A DNA stretch of 64,000 nucleotides from Harriotta raleighana (taxonomy: Eukaryota). Positions 26,188 through 48,092 of this stretch are shown here, piece by piece (position 1 is the first letter of the stretch; every line of letters starts with the position of its first letter). The notes below the pieces were generated by a model. The model saw nothing but the letters and a program-made list of their open reading frames with translations. It was not told where the DNA came from and made no database searches. The position numbers and the translations under genes are program-made. The stretch spans positions 3,447,377 through 3,511,376 of the forward strand of contig JBNZDD010013687.1 in the NCBI GenBank assembly GCA_050575255.1, written 5' to 3'.

Positions 26188-26403
26188 TCACTGTGTTCTG
26201 AAATTAAACAACGACGGCGTGGGATAATATCCGTACTGCGTTTATGCCAACGCCTCCTTGATGATACAGATGCCTGCTGTTTGGATGCTGATCGCCAGTC
26301 AATGCAACTTATTATTGTGAACCTGGAGAGAAGATGGGAAGCGATTATCATGCAAGCAGTGCAATGGCAGAACAGACTGCAAAGGCAACTTGGGAAAGAA
26401 AAG
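26188..26403 (+). CDS. AKAP6: AKAP6 internal coding exon (216 nt, phase 0/0), end of the last spectrin-like repeat
   Basis: ttttcctttag|TCA CTG TGT ... GAA AAG|gtaata. Translates SLCSEIKQRRRGIISVLRLCQRLLDD...MQLIIVNLERRWEAIIMQAVQWQNRLQRQLGKEK. Confidence 0.96.
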
Positions 26404-28754
26404 GTAATAATTCACCGTATAACAACAGAGTGTAACAAATGCACCCAAAGTTTGTTTTCCTTTTTTCCCCTCACCAATATGACCGATTCATATATGACCC
26501 ACGCTGCTGTTGGGAGGAGTATGTGTGTGCACCTATGTGTGTGTGTGTTTGGGGGGTGGGTGGGAATTATACCTGGACTAAATCTTTTCCTCATCTGACA
26601 ACTGCATACACCAACCGACCTTCCAGCAGTGGTCACTGGATAACAATTGGTACCTGAGGTTCTGGCCAATTTTCCACTCATTGAAGCCAGTTGTAGATGT
26701 GACTTATTTTTAAAGTCATGCTTCTAGTTCTGCTTTAATGATCAAAGTTAAATGGCAAGCTTACATATTCAATATAAATTCTAAAATAAATAGTAATAGA
26801 AATAATTAAAATAGAAATAAAAATAGAAATTATCAATTTTTGTTGTTAAAAAATGCCTTCCAACTTTTTTTTCCCCATGAGATCAGGTTTATTGTGTAAA
26901 ATTGTCCTCATAGAAGAGCTCTGAGATGTCACCAAATCAAATTTCTCCATTCAGAGCAGCTTTCAGGAACTTGCATTTCATTTATACGATCCACACCTGC
27001 TGCCAAATGATTAACCTGGTGGTACAGCACAAACCTGTCAATTCCTCCAAACAGATGGGTCATTAAAGCCTTCTACCTGCTTAACACATTCCAGTGGTTT
27101 TACTAGTTTCTGTGTAGACTATTGGGTCAGATGCCAAAAAGCATTTTGCTCTCTTCAGACCCCGAGGATATCTTTAAGGATCTTTTCAAGGGCATTGCTA
27201 CTTGTCCACGTTACCAGACCCCATTGTCTTTCTTTTCATACATGAAAACATTCACCATTACTGAAGAGGGAGAAGAGCCAGAAGTGTTTCCAGCGATATC
27301 ATCAGAAAATCAATACAGTTATTTGCAGTACAATGTTTTTTGTTGTGAATTGCATTATCATCTGTGTTTTTGACAAACAAATAAAAAATAAGTTTTTGGA
27401 ACACACATTCTTTTGTTCAGACATCTTTAAAAGATGTAACCAGCATACTCAGACATTTTTTTGAAAAGACTCTAGAGTTTAGATCCAGGTTTATCTTTTT
27501 GTGGTTTGAAAGCACCCGTGTACTAATGCGCCAATGTGAAATCATATCTGTGATCTCAATTTCACCCAATGGAGATTTTGATGGTGCTGAATAGCCTGTC
27601 ACCACAATTAGGGACAATCGTTTTTTTCTAAGCTACGGCTGTCTAAAGGGACTTATTTGATATATTCATTTCAATTTAACTTCTGTTTTTTTCAAAGGAC
27701 AAATACGTGGATGTTTGATGATAACTTCAGACACACAACATTACAAATAATATCACTCTTTGATCTTTTTTGCAGTGGGTCTATTTAAACAATTAATCTC
27801 TAAACACTTACAATTTCTAACATCTGATAGCACATATAGATGTGCAAAATAATTATTATAGTATTATTTTTCATATTTTCTTACAGCAATCTATTCCTTG
27901 CTCTTTAAAACATCCAACTTATGTAAATAGCTGCAGTAGTTACATTATTTATTGTTTGTTTCACACAGAATGCAAGGTCAGCAGGAACATTGTAGAAAAA
28001 AAGTAATGTTTTATTTGATTAAACTGATTGATTGAACTAACAGTTGTGCCTTTTATCATGCAGTAACAAACCAAGTTAGTCATTACTGTTTCCTTTATCA
28101 GCATGCAAATAATAAAACTCAATCTAATAAAAATTCATTAAGGTAGATGTAGAACATACCTAAGCAATTGTTAAATTCTCTTTTCTATTAGATTTACTGT
28201 CTTCACATGGTCATGAGTAGATCTTTTTGCTGTGAATAAACTGAAAAATCAAATAAGCCACTTAATTACTTCCCTAACCATTCTTTCAGAAATACTAGAA
28301 TTTTGTTGTATTTTCCAGAATTAAAATAAGTTGCCTATTAATATTAATCCTGAATGTTAACTTTATCCCAGGGCCCATATTTATTTATTGTGAACTCATA
28401 TTGTATTGCATTACAAAATAATGTTATTTTGTATTTCAATTTATTCAACTATCTTTTTTTTCCAACAATTTCATTCTAATCATACATTAAGTGAGTCAGT
28501 CAGGATTGCAGAGATGTTTAATTCTCTTTGAGTATACTTACTCTATTGGGATGGAAATATTTCTGTTATTAATTGGTCCTTCAATATTTTTTATTAATCA
28601 TATTTCCCTCCAGTCCCCTCCAAACCACCGATGCATTGTTGTGTTATAGTTCCACAAGTGCTGAGTATTCTCTCATACTTCATCTAAGCAGCGAACAGTC
28701 ATGGATTGAGTGACCAAATTCTTCTTACAGTATTTTAAAAAATTATTTATTATT

Positions 28755-28923
28755 TTGAAGGGATCTTTATTCCCAGAAAAGTGATCCACCAATCGACTAA
28801 TAAGCCAGGTCCTACTTACTGCTAGGTAAACAGAGGCGTGTGGAGTTAGGAAACTTGCCCATGGTTTTGCCCTGCCCAGGATTCAAACCCCGGTCCTCTC
28901 TCTTGTGAGGCAAGTGCTCTACT
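28755..28923 (-). mobile_element. tRNA-derived SINE fragment just upstream of the large AKAP6 exon
   Basis: Reverse strand reads agtagagcacttgcctcacaagagagaggaccggggtttgaatcctgggca (tRNA-like head with B box) followed by 'atgggcaagtttcctaac'. Confidence 0.6.
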
Positions 28924-28986
28924 CCATATAGTAAAGGAATACAACAATTTCATCAACTTTAAATATGAATTTTTGATCTTTTATAG

Positions 28987-31900
28987 ATCTCTTTAAGCTG
29001 CATTGAACCTGGTTCAATGGATTTAAACGTCTTTGGCGAAGATTCGCTGGAATGGGATGAGACTGACATGAGTAATAACCTAATTGGTATCCAAGATGAG
29101 CTACCTGACCTTGCATGTGAACAAAATAGCACACCACAATTATCACCTGAACCTTTGGAAAGTATTACTGATGAATTCATGCTTGATCGATATAGCAGTG
29201 GCCCTGGTGAATCACTGTATAGTCCTGGTGAAGCTCCTTTCTCATTAGGTGCACGCTTCTATCAAACCTACAATCTGCAGAATGTGCAGTTCTATGGAAG
29301 AGATCGGATGACATGTTTCAAAAATATCCCCACCTCAAAGTATCCAAACAGTTTAGTCAGGAGTAAAAGTAAAGATTCATCATTCTCATCCACCGACTCG
29401 TTACCAGATCTGTTAGGGGGCTTGACACCAGCCAAAGAAGACAAACCAACATCACAAGGGCCTTCTGAGAATGAGAGTGGAATTGTCAGTGAGGGTGATA
29501 CAGAAACTGCAGCAAACTCTGAAACCTCTCTTCCAAATCAAGTTGATCAATCTCAGATTCACAGCACTCCTAAACCTCTGCACCCCCTGATAGAGTTAAA
29601 ACATAAGGATTGTCTGATTAGATCGTGCATTTGTAAAAGACAGGGTTCTGTCGAAAAAAAGGAAGGAACGAATTCAGCAACAAAACAAAGAACAAAGAAT
29701 GAAGTTGAATCAACAAAAAATCTTCAGTCACTGTCTATGAGTAATGAAGGAAATTTACAGCCCTTTGATATTAATAAAATCACTCCAAAGGGTATTTCAA
29801 ATGATCTGGAGGCACAATATGATGTATTTACATTTTATGACTATTCTTATCTGCAGGGCCCTGAGCTTGAGTTAACTATGACTATAACTCACTCACCTGA
29901 AGAAAAAGCTACAGATGGCAGCATGTCCTCCAAGCCACATTCTGCTGAATATATTTGTAAAAATAAACTAACAGCTCCAGAATCTAAACCAGACTATAGC
30001 AAACCAGAAAAGAGTGCACCAGCGGTATCGGCAGGCAATCCTAAAACCTATTATAGTAAAGTACCTGATGTCAGAGTATCTCTAGATGTTACAAATGATA
30101 AAGAATTTACATTTTTGTCTCAGGGGTCATCAGTGGAATCGTTCTCCATTGCTGGTGATATATTCCAACTTGGACCCAGCAGCTATAAAAATGAATGTCT
30201 TCAACGCAGTGCTTCCTTAGAAAGCTGGTCCATTCCATATAAAGGCACAGAAGAGTTATTCAGCCATCATGGGTCAGGAGACATCAGTATGGGTAGTGAT
30301 TCCGTAGGGGAGCTAAGTAAGAGGACATTAGATCTTTTGAAACGATTAGAAAACATCCAAACTCCAGTAAGTCCAAAAATGAAACGCAGCATTTCTGACA
30401 TCACACTACAGAGTAACTCCCAAAAAATGTCGTTCACTGGCCAGCTGTCACTTGATGCAGCATCATCTGTCAATGAAGATTCTGCTGCTTCCCTGACAGA
30501 ACTAAGCAGCAGTGATGAGCTCTCTTTGTGTTCTGAAGACATAGTTGTTCATAAAAATGAAATTTCAGATTCCAATGCATTGTTCAAAAAACATACCAAT
30601 CACTCGGTGACTGACGAAGCTGATGTCAATATAAGTATGATTGTCAATGTGTCCTGTACTTCTGCTTGTACAGATGAAGAAGATGATAGTGATTTGCTTT
30701 CCAGTTCAACCCTTACACTAACTGAGGAAGAACTGCACATCAAAGATGATGATGACTCCAGCCTTGCCACAGATGATGAGATTACTGAAGAAAGTAATAA
30801 CATTTTAGACGGAAACTATATGAGGAGTGAATTTCATCAGTGGCTTAAACCAAACTTTTCTATCACAAAGGAAAAGAAAAAATTGGATCCAGGTGAAAGA
30901 GTTCAGTGCAGGAAAGAGTCAAGTACTGGGTTATCCACTCTCAAACATATTTCGAGTCTTTATCCATTTTTAAACAATTCTGGACTGATGCTGCCAGAGT
31001 GTAAAGAAAAGGCAAAGAGCACCTCACTCTGTCACAGAGAGAAACATTTTAAACAAACCAGTATGGTCCCTGTGAAACATTTCTGTACTGACAATTTAAG
31101 TGATGATGTAGAGAATGGCAATGTGGCAAAATGTCCACTAAAGAGCAAGAAAGAACTAAGAGTTTTGGACAGCAAAAGATTTTATGAAAAGGAAGAATAT
31201 ACTAGCAATACTCAGAATACAAAATCCTCGAAATTTGAATTCTCTAGTCGACCAGGGCAACAAAAAACAGATATTTCTACCACCTCATACATTCCAGCCC
31301 AGTTTCCCACACAATCTCCACAAAGGAATGAATGTCATGCATGTTTTGAAGACAGCGGGAGTGTGAAGAAAGTTTTACCTTCCCTTGCTTTTGATTCTGA
31401 TGATGAGATTATTTTCTCAGAGAAGCCTGTAAAATATGATGTTGGTGTGTTAAATGGGAAAATAGCTCCAACGTGTGAAAATAAGCGAAAATGCCAACAT
31501 CACGACACAAGTGCAGAATTACTGTATAATTGCCAAGGTGATGAATATATTACCAATGAAGTTTCAGCTGAAAAATCTGATGCTATTTTGTGCTCATCTC
31601 ATCGTAATTGTGAAAATAAACAGTTGGAAGAAGCTAACAAAGATGATACAAAGATTTTTTCAAGTTGTATCTGCCATTCTGATATGTCTCAGAGTATCGA
31701 TGGCGAAGAAGACAGTTCAGTTCACAATTTTGTGATGGAGATAATTGATATGGCATCATCAGCTCTGAAAAACATCTCGCTGCATGACTCTGACATCACC
31801 AGCCCAACATCAGTGGCTCAGATTAAGGAAAAAGTGTTAGAACATTCTCACCGACCGTTGCAGCTTCGAAAAGGGGACTTTTATTCTTATTTGTCCATCT

Positions 31901-32739
31901 CATCACATGACAGTGACTGTGGTGAGGTGAACACTTGTATGGATGAGAAAAGCACCACTCCACTTCCTTTGGATTTCAGTGATGAGTTCAAACCAGATAA
32001 CAGTGCTGAGGATGAAGCCTTTCTTGATGAAGATTTTGAAGAAAAATGTACTGATCATCCTTGTGTATTTAGTTTTGCACTTCAAAAAGAGACAGTTTTA
32101 GATAGAATTCCATACTCTTTGTCCAAACCCGTATCATTTCCTGACAGGAAACCATTGTCACTGCCAAATGATAGACTGGAGGTAATAGTGCCAAAAGTTA
32201 TTCATGCAACACCAAATGATCAGAAGATATTATGTGAAGGAAATCTAATTAAAACAAACAAAATTAGTCGTAACATAAAAACACTTTTAGGCCTCACTGG
32301 TCAAGTAGATCATAAATCTGAAGACAGTATTGCTCCCTCTCTAGAGTGCCATATTGAGGCTCCGTACATTAATCCTTTGCTGCTTAAAAATCAGATGGAC
32401 AATACTGAGTGTTCATCAGATGATGAATCAATTTTTTCTACATGTAAAATTGAAATGCCTGAACCCAACTATACTCAATTAAATATTGAAGAAGCTGAAA
32501 ACCGTAAGTCAGTGAAACAGCCTCACGAAATGAGAAGTAATCTAGTGAAGAACACACAGCCAAATGACAGTCATTTTGAAAAAACTGGAGACAATCTGTT
32601 TATTAGCACTAAAATCCAATTCCCACAACATGGATATCCTGAGTATGAAAATTGCCAAGATATGGAATATGAAATGGAAGACACGCTTTACAAGAAAGAG
32701 AATAATGGCGATTGCGGGTTTGACTTGTCTCAAGAAGAG
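28987..32739 (+). CDS. AKAP6: AKAP6 large coding exon (3753 nt, phase 0/0). Without splicing it reads through to TAG at 32758-32760.
   Basis: ttttatag|ATC TCT TTA, in frame with ORF 29017..32760. Contains AKAP6 motifs SKDSSFSSTDSLPDLLGG, ESGIVSEGDTET, DVFTFYDYSYLQG, SVGELSKRTLDLLKRLENIQ and KEKVLEHSHRPLQLRKGDFYSYLS. Consensus donor GAG|gtaagt at 32740. Confidence 0.95.
31720..31770 (+). other. AKAP6: PKA RII-binding amphipathic helix of mAKAP
   Basis: VHNFVMEIIDMASSALK, matching the mammalian mAKAP RII-binding segment VHNFVKEIIDMASTALK as recalled. Confidence 0.85.
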
Positions 32740-32838
32740 GTAAGTTATATGATCTATTAGATCCACCATTCAGAAATGGCTATACGCTAATTCTCTATTG
32801 TGCATCTGTCTTTGCCATAACTAAAATGGAAATAGTAG

Positions 32839-32844
32839 AATAAA
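32839..32844 (+). terminator. Candidate polyadenylation signal for the unspliced, KASH-less AKAP6 end
   Basis: AATAAA about 80 nt after the read-through stop at 32760. The context is AT-rich, so it may be chance. Confidence 0.35.
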
Positions 32845-33598
32845 AATAATTATTTTAAATTGGTACCACATCAAAGCTTAAATTGGAGAATGCCTCAAAT
32901 TAGTCTTTTTCAAACAATATATTTATTCTTAATTGTGATTGTTATAGAATATGAAATGGGATAATATTAATATCCGATGATCTAATGCGTCATTTCTAAA
33001 GACCATATAGTTAAGTATTGCTTTAAAACACAAGCATGTTTTGTTTGTCCAAGCAGAATGAATGTTTGAATGAAGTTAGCATTTTAATCCCATATTTCAT
33101 GTAAAGGCATAGCTAGCATGAACCTTTGTAAAAATTTAAGATGTCACTTGACAGTTCCTATCTGTTTCTTTCTCTTGTTGTCTCTAAGAACTGGTCATTT
33201 CTAGAATTACTCTCTTAACATTCACAAAGTGCAGATAACAGTAAAAGTCCACACCTACAAAACAATGACATCACTAAAACAATTCACAATGAATTTAAAG
33301 GATTAAGATGCTTGACATTTTGTAGTCTATTAAAAGACTTAACACGGATTAGCAGCATTGTGTATTTAATAAAAAGATTATGGATATTCCCCGTGAATGC
33401 TATGATAGTAAGACATTCAAAAGTACGGTCAAAGAATACGAGTTATGTGTATAAAGAAGATTTACTATGATGGCTTTTATGATGCTGTATAGCTTAACTA
33501 AGTGTTATTGAAACTAAAGTTGTGTTTATGTTTCACTTTTTATTATGCCATTGGTGGAATCAGAGTAATAAATAGTAATACACTTTTCTGATTTTCAG

Positions 33599-33739
33599 AT
33601 TCCTAGCTCTTCAAAATTTATAAAAGGGAAACCCAAGAAAGCTAAGAACAATAGAACCACTGGTGATAACCTTACTGTTTGTGCTTTCCATCATAACGAA
33701 TCTCTGCATGACTCTCATGCTGCAAGATCTGTGCCCAAG
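33599..33739 (+). CDS. AKAP6: Candidate AKAP6 cassette exon (141 nt, phase 0/0)
   Basis: Strong acceptor cttttctgattttcag|ATT, open frame IPSSSKFIKGKPKKAKNNRTTGDNLTVCAFHHNESLHDSHAARSVPK, donor AAG|gtatag. A second donor gtgagt at 33748 lies past an in-frame TAG. Confidence 0.55.
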
Positions 33740-34463
33740 GTATAGATGTGAGTTGAACAAACATTCTTTCTAAAAATGTGAATATTCAATTGATTAAGAA
33801 ATCTTGGCACAATTGTCAGATGAGTTAGACATTCTCTAGGGAATCAATGCGCTTTGGAATCAGAAAATAGCTCTTTTTTCACCATGATTGTAAAAGCCTA
33901 AAATAGCAGTCTACATGGTGGCATGATTGATTTATAATCTAGCCTAGGTAAAACTACATTGTTAATATACAAATTTCCAGAATAGATGGTTAGATTAAAT
34001 AACTAGTACTGTAAAAATTATTACTGGCGGTTGGCTTTTTTTTCTGATGCAACTGCCTTAGCATCCCACAGTTTGAAGATAATATGATTAGGGGAAAGGA
34101 ATGTCAGCACTCCCAATTTCTCCTTTCCAACAAGCTGCCTTGAAAAACAAGAATGAATTTGTATCTGGTGTAAAACAATAAGCCTTTAGTTGTTGTCGCC
34201 TTGCAAAATTGCCAGTGGACAATGGAAATCTATCTCATTATGACCAGTATGTACACTATTCTGCTTGTGTATTAAGTTTTTAAAAATATATAATTCACAA
34301 ATTCCCTTATAAATAGTTGATCGTTGCATAATTAAGCCAAAATCTATTTAATACATAGAGTAATCTTTATAATTTACTTCCTGTTCTGCTTTGTTGCTTT
34401 CTGGATTCATTGCTTACAGCTCTTCCTTTACTTTTATATGTCATTTTTTTTATATAAATGTAG

Positions 34464-34498
34464 AGGTCAGTAGCAGCAAAACAAGATCAAAGGCAAAG
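34464..34498 (+). CDS. AKAP6: Candidate AKAP6 35-nt micro-exon (phase 0 to 2) bridging to the KASH exon
   Basis: Long pyrimidine-rich tract, then tag|AGG TCA GTA GCA GCA AAA CAA GAT CAA AGG CAA AG|gtaact. It supplies exactly the phase shift needed to enter the exon at 35370 in frame. Confidence 0.65.
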
Positions 34499-35369
34499 GT
34501 AACTAGCTAGATCCAGATATTTCTGCCTAATTTGGAAGGCGAATACATGCATGTCTGGAGTGCTTCCTAGAAGCTGTAGAAGAGATGTACTTTGCGTTAA
34601 TCTCTTCGGCTGCATTCTGACAGTCATTTCTTCATAATCCTCATCACAAGCTCCTGCACTTTGCTGCATGGTTTAATTATCCCAGACTGACTCCTCACTG
34701 TGGAAATCAAACCCTATGGCTGGCCAGATGTTATTGCTTTCTTGCTCCCAGATATAGAAAAAACCTGAAGTTTAACATATAAATATATACAGAGTGGATA
34801 TGAAAGAAATTAATTTGGAAGTGTCTATAATAAATATACAGTATTTGATTGCTACATTTAGGTCACTTACTTTATAAATAGTTTTAATGACTTCAGGTTT
34901 TTATAATCATTTGGGGCCCAATGATTGCTGCTTTATGTATCCACTATCACTGGGCTTGCTTCAATCAATGTTGTTTTCATATTGACATATGTATCTGAGG
35001 GTGTTGTCTGCATATTGAAGCTCATAGATGAGGATGAATGCAGGAAGGTCACACGTGACAGATTACTAACTTCCCTAGTGAAGTTATTATTAAAAATTGA
35101 TAAAGCCCTGAACAATAATTCAATACTATTATAATTTATTTTTCCAAACACTTTTACTGTCATTTCTACTTTCGAATATAATGTTTTGGGCACATGCTTA
35201 TAAATAGCTCAAGTAGTTGTTTACTGGTAATCCTAGAATTCTGCTAAATAATGCAATCATGTTTTTTAAATATTTGTAATATTACCGATATAGAATGGTG
35301 ACAAAGTAATGGTTTATAATTCTGTATTGTCCCTGACTACAACATGAATTTGTCTTTCTTTCCCTTCAG

Positions 35370-35649
35370 AAATCTGGCTGTATCCTTGCTCCATTTTTGT
35401 CCACCTATTCCCAAGGTAGCCTCTAATCATATTCAGTCAACCTCTTCCTCACTGATATCCAAGTCAAGCTCTTTCCAAATGCGAGTTTTTCATGCAGGTG
35501 TGATAATCTGGTTGCTTCTGCTGATCCTTTGTATGGCAATTGCTATAACTCCCTTGTTTGTAATACCATCAGATTGCAGCAAAGTTCGGCTGTTTTCTTC
35601 TTCATGGACTCCTGTCCTAAGCTACCTCCAAGGACCCCCTCCATTCTGA
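35370..35649 (+). CDS. AKAP6: Terminal exon encoding a KASH domain (35473-35646), most likely the last coding exon of AKAP6
   Basis: Strong acceptor tctttctttcccttcag|A (phase 2). Ends FQMRVFHAGVIIWLLLLILCMAIAITPLFVIPSDCSKVRLFSSSWTPVLSYLQGPPPF-TGA: a hydrophobic TM segment plus a luminal tail with PPPX at the C-terminus. The KASH call is strong; assignment to AKAP6 is inferred from splicing. Confidence 0.85.
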
Positions 35650-35847
35650 TTTAAAGTTTATTAAATGTCCTGCTTTTTGTGGCAATAGGCATTTTTTGAT
35701 ATCTAAAGGAATATTATAGCATTTGCATTTACAATACCAAGATGTAATTTTGTTTAAATTTCTGTAATGGCATTTGATATGAATGCATTTGGAATATATC
35801 AGAGTAATATGGTACTTGGAAATTATTGGGGCAATGTGTCAACTTGA

Positions 35848-35853
35848 AATAAA
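35848..35853 (+). terminator. Candidate polyadenylation signal after the KASH exon
   Basis: First AATAAA about 200 nt after the TGA at 35649. Others occur at 36485 and 36506. Confidence 0.35.
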
Positions 35854-38049
35854 ACAACTGTTTATCATGCATACACATGCATATGCAAACAAAAGATGTT
35901 GGCCAAGTTGTGTTAACTGTGCTTCATCTGTCAAGCGGAACCCTGGATTTTATTCAATAATTTACCTTTAGTTATTAAAATATGGCAAGTAACATATTAC
36001 TTAAAAGAAAAATCTGAAGTTTATATTGAGTAACAATTATAATATATTGATACAAACATGTAAGCAAAGTTAAAACAATATCAACATAGAATTCACAGAT
36101 CGAATCTATGCAATACTGAAACTCTAAAAAAAAGTAATTGAAAAAATTGTTCTACATTGAAATTATAGGCATTTCATTTGGTTCAGTACCATCATTTTCT
36201 TATTTGCTCTTAAAGGGAAAAAGAAAGAAATGTTTTAACAATGTGTGCCTTGCTGTATTTCTTATACCTTTTGTTAAAAAGCTGCATTTCCCTGAAGAAG
36301 TTGGTTTAAAGATATGGTATAGCAAGATTAGGCTGTGTGTATAATTTCTGTACATATGTAGAAGAAAATGCTAACATTGATGTATATGATATACAATGCT
36401 TTCTTGTTTTGTGTTAACTTGTCCAGTGGTGTAGAAATATTAAGCCTTAAACTGTTAGATTGCATGGGTAAATTAAAGTTGGCAAATAAAAATAATTTAT
36501 CAGACAATAAAGTGGACTGAGTTATTGGTTTTCAAAGATACAGTAACATTTTCTAAAGAAGAGAAGCTAACAGTGGTCTACGCTTTTGGTATTTAATACT
36601 TTGTGTTAAAGGGAGAAAATAACATAAAATATTCAATGATATAATTGTTGTGAAACATCAACAGTGTTCAAGATGACACTGATCTCCCCTTCTCCTTCGA
36701 CCTAATCAACATAAACATTACAGTATTTCTTACACTGCTTTTTAGCACTCGGGAGGCCAAGCTGTGACATCACAAAGAGATCGAGATATTCTACAGTTGG
36801 AAATCCCATTAAGTGAACATACCCACTGTAAATCAGCACTAAAATTGTTCTTTATTAGTAAAAAGAATTACCAACATAATTTGAATGTTTAATTTCATAA
36901 CAATCTAACAGCGAAGAATTAAAGAAGATTACAAGAAGATTAAATCTGAAGACAAATAGGTAAGATAATTTTTTTTATAAAGGTATTAGAAGAGATTTAA
37001 TACAGATGCAGAAAATGAATGATTTTTAGATCTAGGCAGAATAAATGATTAATAAGATTAATAATAAAAATGAACACAACACCCATCCTTGCAGTTGATG
37101 TTAGGAGGATGTCTCAAAACCATTTACAGGAATTACGGCAAAGTGTAGTGACTGCATATTACGTAAGTAGATTGGCATAATGTTATAAAAGAAAATTGGG
37201 AGTTGGGAGGAAAAAAATGTAATTGAAATTACAGCTAAGATTTTAAAAAAATCATTCATAAAGGAAATGTTTAAACAATTAATTGACAAAAGATAAAAAC
37301 TAGAGAGAAATTGTAATGTATAGTAAAAAAAATTGGGAAGATTAGTTATAGTTTAATTTATGCTGATTATTTATGAGGTTATTTGAATTGATTCTTCATA
37401 AGGAATTGTGGGATCATTACACAATGATGATTTGGGTATTGAAAGAATGTGTAGAGAAGATATTTGATTATTAAGTAAAATTACCTATGTAAAAACTATT
37501 GCTATATTTAAGGCACTATTTAGAATTTGTTACAGTTAGATTGTATTCAAATTTGTGCGAGAAATAGCCTTATCTTTGTTATAATGTTTTTTGTGTTTAG
37601 TTGAGGTCAGGTTCACAATTGCAAATAAGTATGACCAATAATAGTAATGTGCGGAATTACACAAACAACCAAACAAAATTACCTTTATAGAGTGCCTTTC
37701 ACATCAAGAGGAAGTCCCAACACGCCGATATCAAGAATGTATTGGAATCTGAAGTTCAGATGAATGATTTATTATTTTAAATTAAAGAATATTCATGATC
37801 CCTACAAAAACAATCATTGTAACAGATCTACTTCTTTTGGCAATTCATCCAAAAGATGGAATTTAGGAACAGTAGAATACAGAGATTGTCCTATTTAAAC
37901 CCCTGCCTAACATTTCCATTGTTGCTTTGGTACATTTGTAAAACTTCACTGCCATCATATGCTACAATTTCAGTTTACAGTATTTAGAGTTTTTGGAGCA
38001 CACTAAATGTTAATGCTCTAATCTTTTAATCTTCTAATATTGGATGCAT

Positions 38050-48042: not shown

Positions 48043-48092
48043 ATGGCGCCCACCAAGCAAGGCTTCCAGCACGATCCTTCAAGACGTGAACG
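48043..48092 (+). CDS. NPAS3: NPAS3 canonical first coding exon (50 nt, ends phase 2)
   Basis: aaaATGG start context; MAPTKQGFQHDPSRRE(R), then CG|gtaacg. Human NPAS3 begins MAPTKPSFQQDPSRRER as recalled. Confidence 0.93.

Follow-up and report, generated by a model that had tools for sequence, protein, structure and literature searches.

A 35-nucleotide penultimate exon sets the KASH frame of AKAP6 in cartilaginous fishes and is a likely splice switch

The window analysed here is the whole stretch of 64,000 nucleotides (nt) from Harriotta raleighana (assembly GCA_050575255.1, contig JBNZDD010013687.1, positions 3,447,377 to 3,511,376 of the forward strand); all coordinates count from its first letter and all features lie on the plus strand. 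It carries exons of AKAP6, the last of which codes for a KASH domain, and a 35-nt exon that precedes this last one. The model we propose, which we hold to be probable, is that the 35-nt exon is the conserved penultimate exon of AKAP6 and sets the frame in which the KASH exon is read, and that splicing likely switches the protein between forms with and without KASH. It would be an on/off switch for KASH like that of SYNE1, in a gene that is not known to have this domain. What is new is the placing of the switch on AKAP6; KASH-ending RefSeq models and the exon-145 switch of SYNE1 were known.

The switch would have three outcomes. The donor at 33739, at the end of a 141-nt exon, together with the 35-nt micro-exon would give the KASH form; the same donor with the micro-exon skipped would give an 18-residue frameshift tail; and the donor at 33747 would lead to a stop three codons on. 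The three corresponding classes of C-terminus (KASH, frameshift and PKV-stop) match database models. Use of the weak donor 33739 and of the weak acceptor of the micro-exon would produce a tail-anchored AKAP6, predicted to reside in the outer nuclear membrane via SUN proteins, and the soluble KASH-less forms would rely on the binding of spectrin repeat 3 to nesprin-1alpha to reach the nucleus, as in mammals. The stronger donor 33747, 8 nt beyond 33739, was not in an earlier note on this DNA, nor was the reading of the path as a switch.

Terminal exons and the KASH tail

The large exon of AKAP6 (28987..32739, phase 0-0) ends at a strong phase-0 donor, GAG/GTAAGT, past which the frame reads six sense codons before a stop. 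The last exon (coding part 35370..35649) opens with a phase-2 acceptor and encodes 92 residues in the KASH frame or the 18-residue frameshift tail; joined directly to the large exon it is out of frame. Between them lie the 141-nt exon (33599..33739, phase 0-0), whose weak first donor AAG/GTATAG is required by the KASH path; its 8-nt extension to the second, stronger donor GAT/GTGAGT (33740..33747), with an in-frame TAG at 33743-33745 that makes the KASH-less end (PKV, stop); and the penultimate exon (34464..34498, phase 0-2, peptide RSVAAKQDQRQ), the KASH frame switch, which has a weak acceptor and a good donor. Paths via the latter, with or without the 141-nt exon, are open to the terminal PPPF. 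The earlier note had described the donor at 32739, the acceptor at 35370, the frame conflict between them and its repair by the micro-exon, and all of this was borne out. On a rough position-weight matrix, the donors score 7.82 (32739), 0.19 (33739), 3.74 (33747) and 4.11 bits (34498), and the micro-exon acceptor -3.21 bits.

The same note took this mutual fit of phases as independent support for placing the KASH exon in AKAP6. The exon does belong there, as gene models from nine species and spliced contigs indicate, but the phase fit does not stand as independent proof, being a weak test against chance: 40 segments of 20-200 nt that run open from AG to GT between the large and KASH exons would mend the frame, and the 35-nt exon comes second among these 40 on the rough splice-site score. 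That the 35-nt exon is a real spliced one is shown by its conservation and by spliced contigs on both of its sides.

The last exon matches the Pfam KASH profile with 39.1 bits for a cut-off of 23, and the KASH match of a full-length relative reaches 33.4 bits. It encodes a predicted transmembrane helix (35500..35556, mean hydropathy 2.86) and then a luminal KASH peptide of 30 residues (35557..35646) with Cys at -23, Phe at -17, Pro at -11, Tyr at -7 and the terminal PPPF; the full-length relative has, by hydropathy prediction, a single transmembrane stretch with 30 residues after it. The Cys aligns with known KASH peptides, and we presume -23 to be the number of the disulfide Cys. [quoted passage not shown] In a family search of its own genome, the AKAP6 exon was accompanied by three much stronger KASH matches, which from their sequences we take to be SYNE1, SYNE2 and probably SYNE3. 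The marks of the KASH1/2 class, as listed in the source (terminal PPPX, Tyr -7, Pro -11 and a disulfide Cys; 10.1101/2020.06.19.161265), lead us to predict that the luminal peptide of the KASH form would bind SUN1/2.

Splice paths in contigs and in cartilaginous-fish models

The contigs consulted come from six (X1-X6) of seven listed runs, all six of a related organism about 94% alike, which we guess to be RNA, none being on record as such; X1-X4 were compared over 28500-36600, and X1, X3, X5 and X6 over 33570-35470 with a complete table of joints. Their GT..AG joints show splicing. Among the junctions that the earlier note had named for checking, that of the large to the 141-nt exon (32739 to 33599) is present in all four of X1-X4 and that of the micro-exon to the last exon (34498 to 35370) in two of these four (X1 and X3); the other two were not seen, namely 32739 to 34464 among the joints listed for X1-X4 over 28500-36600, and the KASH-coding 33739 to 34464, which is weighed below. 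The 141-nt exon, which the earlier note held could be included or skipped, is indeed frame-neutral, but no skipping was seen in the four runs or in the 15 KASH models described below, and it looks constitutive.

In X1-X4 the contigs continue without a gap through the 3' end of this exon as far as 33747, which lies eight bases beyond the KASH-path donor. From there X1, X2 and X4 join the last exon (33747 to 35370), X5 does so as a loose end with the TAG unchanged, and X3 joins the micro-exon (33747 to 34464); run X6 covers only the last exon. All paths visible in the contigs are KASH-less, and the KASH form probably makes up a minor share or is confined to certain tissues. Under the 50-55-nt rule of nonsense-mediated decay, the forms made with donor 33747 would likely escape, since their stop lies only 2 or 37 nt upstream of the last junction.

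The join of 33747 to 35370 puts the KASH frame in register directly after a single UAG, and the KASH domain could therefore be reached mainly by recoding, this UAG being read through or edited; the joint occurs in three runs and as a loose end in a fourth. An in-frame join is nevertheless expected by chance one time in three, the loose end of X5 has its TAG unchanged, no complement to the stop region beats shuffled sequences (-25.9 kcal/mol, the mean of the shuffles being -25.2), and the corresponding extension in Narcine consists of three whole codons that lead into a non-KASH frame. Our search for read-through or editing of the UAG found no support and no editing-type complement nearby, and we judge recoding very unlikely.

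The KASH exon might also be a separate small transcript or gene behind AKAP6, as unspliced or independent transcripts are a possible source of the near end-to-end contig cover of the last two introns in two runs. This we consider extremely improbable, for a single X4 contig holds the large, 141-nt and last exons together and database models join these exons in nine species. The preceding intron is covered in pieces only, and the last two introns are possibly retained or slowly spliced.

By sequence identity and by tree, the large exon and the spectrin region are orthologous to AKAP6, the large exon being 92% identical to that of Callorhinchus milii, 55-68% to those of sharks and rays and, over the main block, 40-47% to those of tetrapods. 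KASH-ending AKAP6 models number 15, from nine of 23 chondrichthyan species, and every one contains both small exons; the frameshift tail after the 141-nt exon is found in 15 of the 23 species, and so is the PKV-stop end. The KASH models are already in RefSeq with a precomputed Pfam KASH match, under the mere name 'A-kinase anchor protein 6'; one of them, the automatically annotated XP_007891570 (C. milii AKAP6 X1), has the same exon path and tail as the window. A word-limited search with the KASH-tail region among proteins of 1,469-4,675 residues gave only 4 chondrichthyan entries among 63 candidates. In eight KASH models the micro-exon peptide is identical to that of the window at 10-12 of 12 positions and the last 30 residues at 20-30 of 30; over the 141-nt exon C. 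milii agrees at 39 of 47 positions and the other seven, sharks and rays, at 20-26 of 47. The conservation seen here could be partly due to splicing signals rather than to the protein.

Several observations weigh against a working switch. The KASH-coding join 33739 to 34464 is not among the joints listed for any of the six runs, although contigs from a related species drop rare forms, and a join missing from contigs is not necessarily missing from the reads. Where the end of the 141-nt exon is covered, the contigs use donor 33747 only, which keeps the TAG. The KASH join rests on automatic gene models whose read support could not be seen; for 14 of the 23 species the entries examined include no KASH model; and three skates have the frameshift tail without either small exon, 18 of the 23 species having frameshift tails overall. 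The KASH path may then be a relic, rarely spliced, the working AKAP6 being KASH-less as in mammals, and the weakness of donor 33739 and of the micro-exon acceptor would agree with this. Weak splice sites are, however, expected for a regulated exon, and those seen here fit one; the micro-exon and the luminal peptide are kept far better than the 141-nt exon of sharks and rays; and KASH tails still occur in two lamprey paralogues. We thus regard a relic as unlikely and retain the switch between KASH and KASH-less forms.

Two lineages show further variation. In Narcine the tandem donor is seemingly kept, its extension having no stop, and the five entries include no KASH model. In five skate models the last exon follows the large one directly and is out of frame, and an independent loss of the KASH path may have occurred in this lineage.

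Age of the KASH tail and probable kinship with the nesprins

Searched in full with HMMER, the last exon brought seven hits, the best of them the lamprey protein XP_078726639.1; four others were nesprin-1-like fragments with KASH, and two, which were set aside, were repeat-like proteins. XP_078726639.1 unites the spectrin region, a conserved helix and a KASH domain of 29.9 bits, and its cluster of five members comprises two that end in KASH and three without it. Another lamprey protein, CAN0400740.1, ends in a C-terminal transmembrane helix and a KASH-like tail and agrees with the micro-exon stretch at 10 of 13 positions, the best of 167 other proteins reaching 7 of 13. Both group with AKAP6 against nesprin-1 in a tree (100/100, with long branches and one outgroup family), and in a tree of tails the one lamprey tail included groups with the shark AKAP6 tails, apart from SYNE1/2/3 (100/100, long branch). 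To be set on the other side are the 16.6 bits of the CAN0400740.1 tail, below the Pfam KASH cut-off, the lack of a clear match to the conserved helix in this protein and of the micro-exon motif in XP_078726639.1, and the long lamprey branches and few outgroups of the trees. One isoform of the XP_078726639.1 gene ends in KV-stop and resembles the shark short form.

Of 192 other AKAP6 entries, which come almost entirely from bony vertebrates and are seen through their annotated exons only, none has a terminal hydrophobic stretch. They are 105 non-chondrichthyan matches drawn from the best 120 of 339, 59 further entries of at least 2,425 residues (teleosts, one entry unnamed) and 28 cluster members; gar, sturgeon, bichir, lungfish, amphibians and hagfish are not represented. 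The HMMER search described above, a search of representatives, missed the shark KASH isoforms and cannot show absence in bony fish. In four teleost entries, a stretch ending in AAKQ about 50 residues from the end is alike at 6 of 13 positions to the first half of the micro-exon peptide, and isoforms diverge immediately after it; this stretch is possibly a remnant of the micro-exon.

The absence of the stretch from the 192 entries would fit a secondary gain in chondrichthyans, which would have captured the KASH exon from a nesprin gene while earlier AKAP6 had none. Such a capture is highly improbable, for both AKAP6 paralogues of lampreys carry a KASH or KASH-like tail, the one included in the tree of tails falls with those of sharks and not with SYNE1/2/3 (on a long branch), and the spectrin exon further upstream has homologues in SYNE1/2, with which it shares an intron position. 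We infer that the ancestor which lampreys share with jawed vertebrates would have held the PKA site and KASH in one protein, and that bony vertebrates would have fixed the KASH-less state. AKAP6 likely began as a self-docking nesprin whose anchor was probably lost in bony vertebrates, humans included.

The spectrin-repeat exon in question lies at 26188..26412 and has homologues upstream of the SYNE1 and SYNE2 KASH exons; against its own genome it matches only itself and these two (E 2.3e-6 and 3.7e-6). Its acceptor has the same aligned position and phase as theirs, and its donor phase differs. The spectrin region as a whole matches nesprin-1 with E 2e-17. The terminal exons of SYNE1 in this genome are of 93 nt (0-0) and 59 nt (0-2) before the last (phase 2), and those of SYNE2 of 87 nt (0-0) and probably 47 nt (0-2) before the last (phase 2), with a possible further exon of 30 nt; the penultimate exons were located via short motifs and inspection, ab initio scoring being uninformative. 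The suggestion in the earlier note that both genes have a short penultimate exon and a phase-2 last intron is thereby upheld, clearly for SYNE1 and probably for SYNE2; its wider comparison stops there, the last acceptor of the third KASH gene (probably SYNE3) being in phase 0.

In humans, exon 145 of SYNE1 is a cassette exon; when it is skipped, KASH is shifted out of frame and the protein leaves the nuclear envelope (PMC3388047). Skipping of the 59-nt exon in the SYNE1 of this genome gives a 12-residue tail similar to the human one, and a nesprin-1 entry from a bat has the published exon-145-skipped tail at its end. The KASH on/off switch appears to predate the split between SYNE1 and AKAP6.

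Near the start of the large exon, at 29047..29058, stands the tryptophan-acidic motif LEWD, as in nesprin-1 and -2. It is present in 120 of 120 AKAP6 matches, mammals included (the best 120 of 339), and a teleost variant, L/W-EWDE, in 58 of 59. A conserved amphipathic helix, marked by sequence conservation at 31720..31767, is presumably the site that binds PKA-RII. In nesprin-1 and -2, PMC10317153 reports, LEWD binds kinesin light chain; in the accessible parts of three papers that name both terms we saw no mention of LEWD in AKAP6. The full-length relative has no calponin-homology domains, Pfam finding only spectrin and KASH, and AKAP6 is therefore not a giant nesprin. Calponin-homology domains belong to giant nesprin-1 and -2 only, the short nesprins being without them. 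Taken together, the spectrin repeats, LEWD, the short 0-2 exon and KASH suggest that AKAP6 derives from a nesprin's C-terminal part.

Relation to known systems and minor features

Compared with the exon-145 switch of SYNE1 (PMC3388047), that of AKAP6 likewise has a short penultimate cassette whose skipping frameshifts the last exon, so that KASH is lost with the 3' untranslated region unchanged, and the phases (0-2, then 2) match those of SYNE1 in this genome. It differs in its host gene, in an exon of 35 instead of 59 nt with no clear sequence likeness, and in the tandem donor with its own stop, which provides a second off-route. The short C-terminal nesprins such as nesprin-1alpha2 have, in the same order, spectrin repeats, LEWD, a transmembrane helix and a KASH1/2-class peptide with Pro -11; AKAP6 differs from them by some 1,250 residues that no Pfam family matches, lying between LEWD and KASH in place of the additional spectrin repeats of nesprin-1, and by the conserved helix that we take to be a PKA site. 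With mammalian AKAP6 (mAKAP), the window shares orthologous spectrin repeats, conserved blocks of the large exon and presumably the role of a perinuclear scaffold; the chimpanzee protein differs in having neither a transmembrane stretch nor KASH. Mammalian AKAP6 gets to the envelope by the binding of its spectrin repeat 3 to nesprin-1alpha (PMC7725499 and PMC10317153).

A full-text search, its hits judged mostly by title and the opening of the abstract, found no paper that describes a KASH domain of AKAP6 or makes AKAP6 a paralogue of the nesprins, though subscription literature could mention the homology; reviews count six KASH proteins in humans and see AKAP6 as an adaptor that binds nesprin and has no fly homologue. 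We lean slightly towards a wider reading, taken as a whole, in which AKAP6 would be a nesprin, once a LINC component with an inherited release switch; early-vertebrate AKAP6 would have tied a PKA-signalling, microtubule-organising scaffold directly to SUN proteins; bony vertebrates would have retained the released form alone; and the pairing of mAKAP with nesprin-1alpha in mammalian heart and muscle would be one between paralogues that replaced the lost anchor. If AKAP6 is a nesprin that lost KASH, its location at the nuclear envelope and the pairing of its spectrin repeats with nesprin-1alpha would be explained, and the LEWD of mammalian AKAP6 would be predicted to bind kinesin light chain. 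The shark AKAP6-KASH would then be a natural, nesprin-independent version in which to see if location at the envelope is by itself enough for perinuclear cyclic AMP signalling and for the microtubule-organising centre at the nuclear envelope.

Among the minor features, a third donor at 33947 (segment 33917..33947), deduced from a 28-letter loose end, is joined to the micro-exon in one run; if its exon continues from 33599, the stop would lie more than 200 nt before the last junction and the transcript would be a likely decay substrate. The 3' untranslated region spans 35650..36516, with AATAAA at 36485 and 36506 and contig ends of three runs at 36466-36516. Just upstream of the acceptor of the large exon, 28690-28920 is a high-copy repeat where contigs pile up in thousands. 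Downstream of AKAP6, a short frame at 48043 resembles what we take to be the N-terminus of NPAS3, presumably the neighbour of AKAP6 in humans as well.

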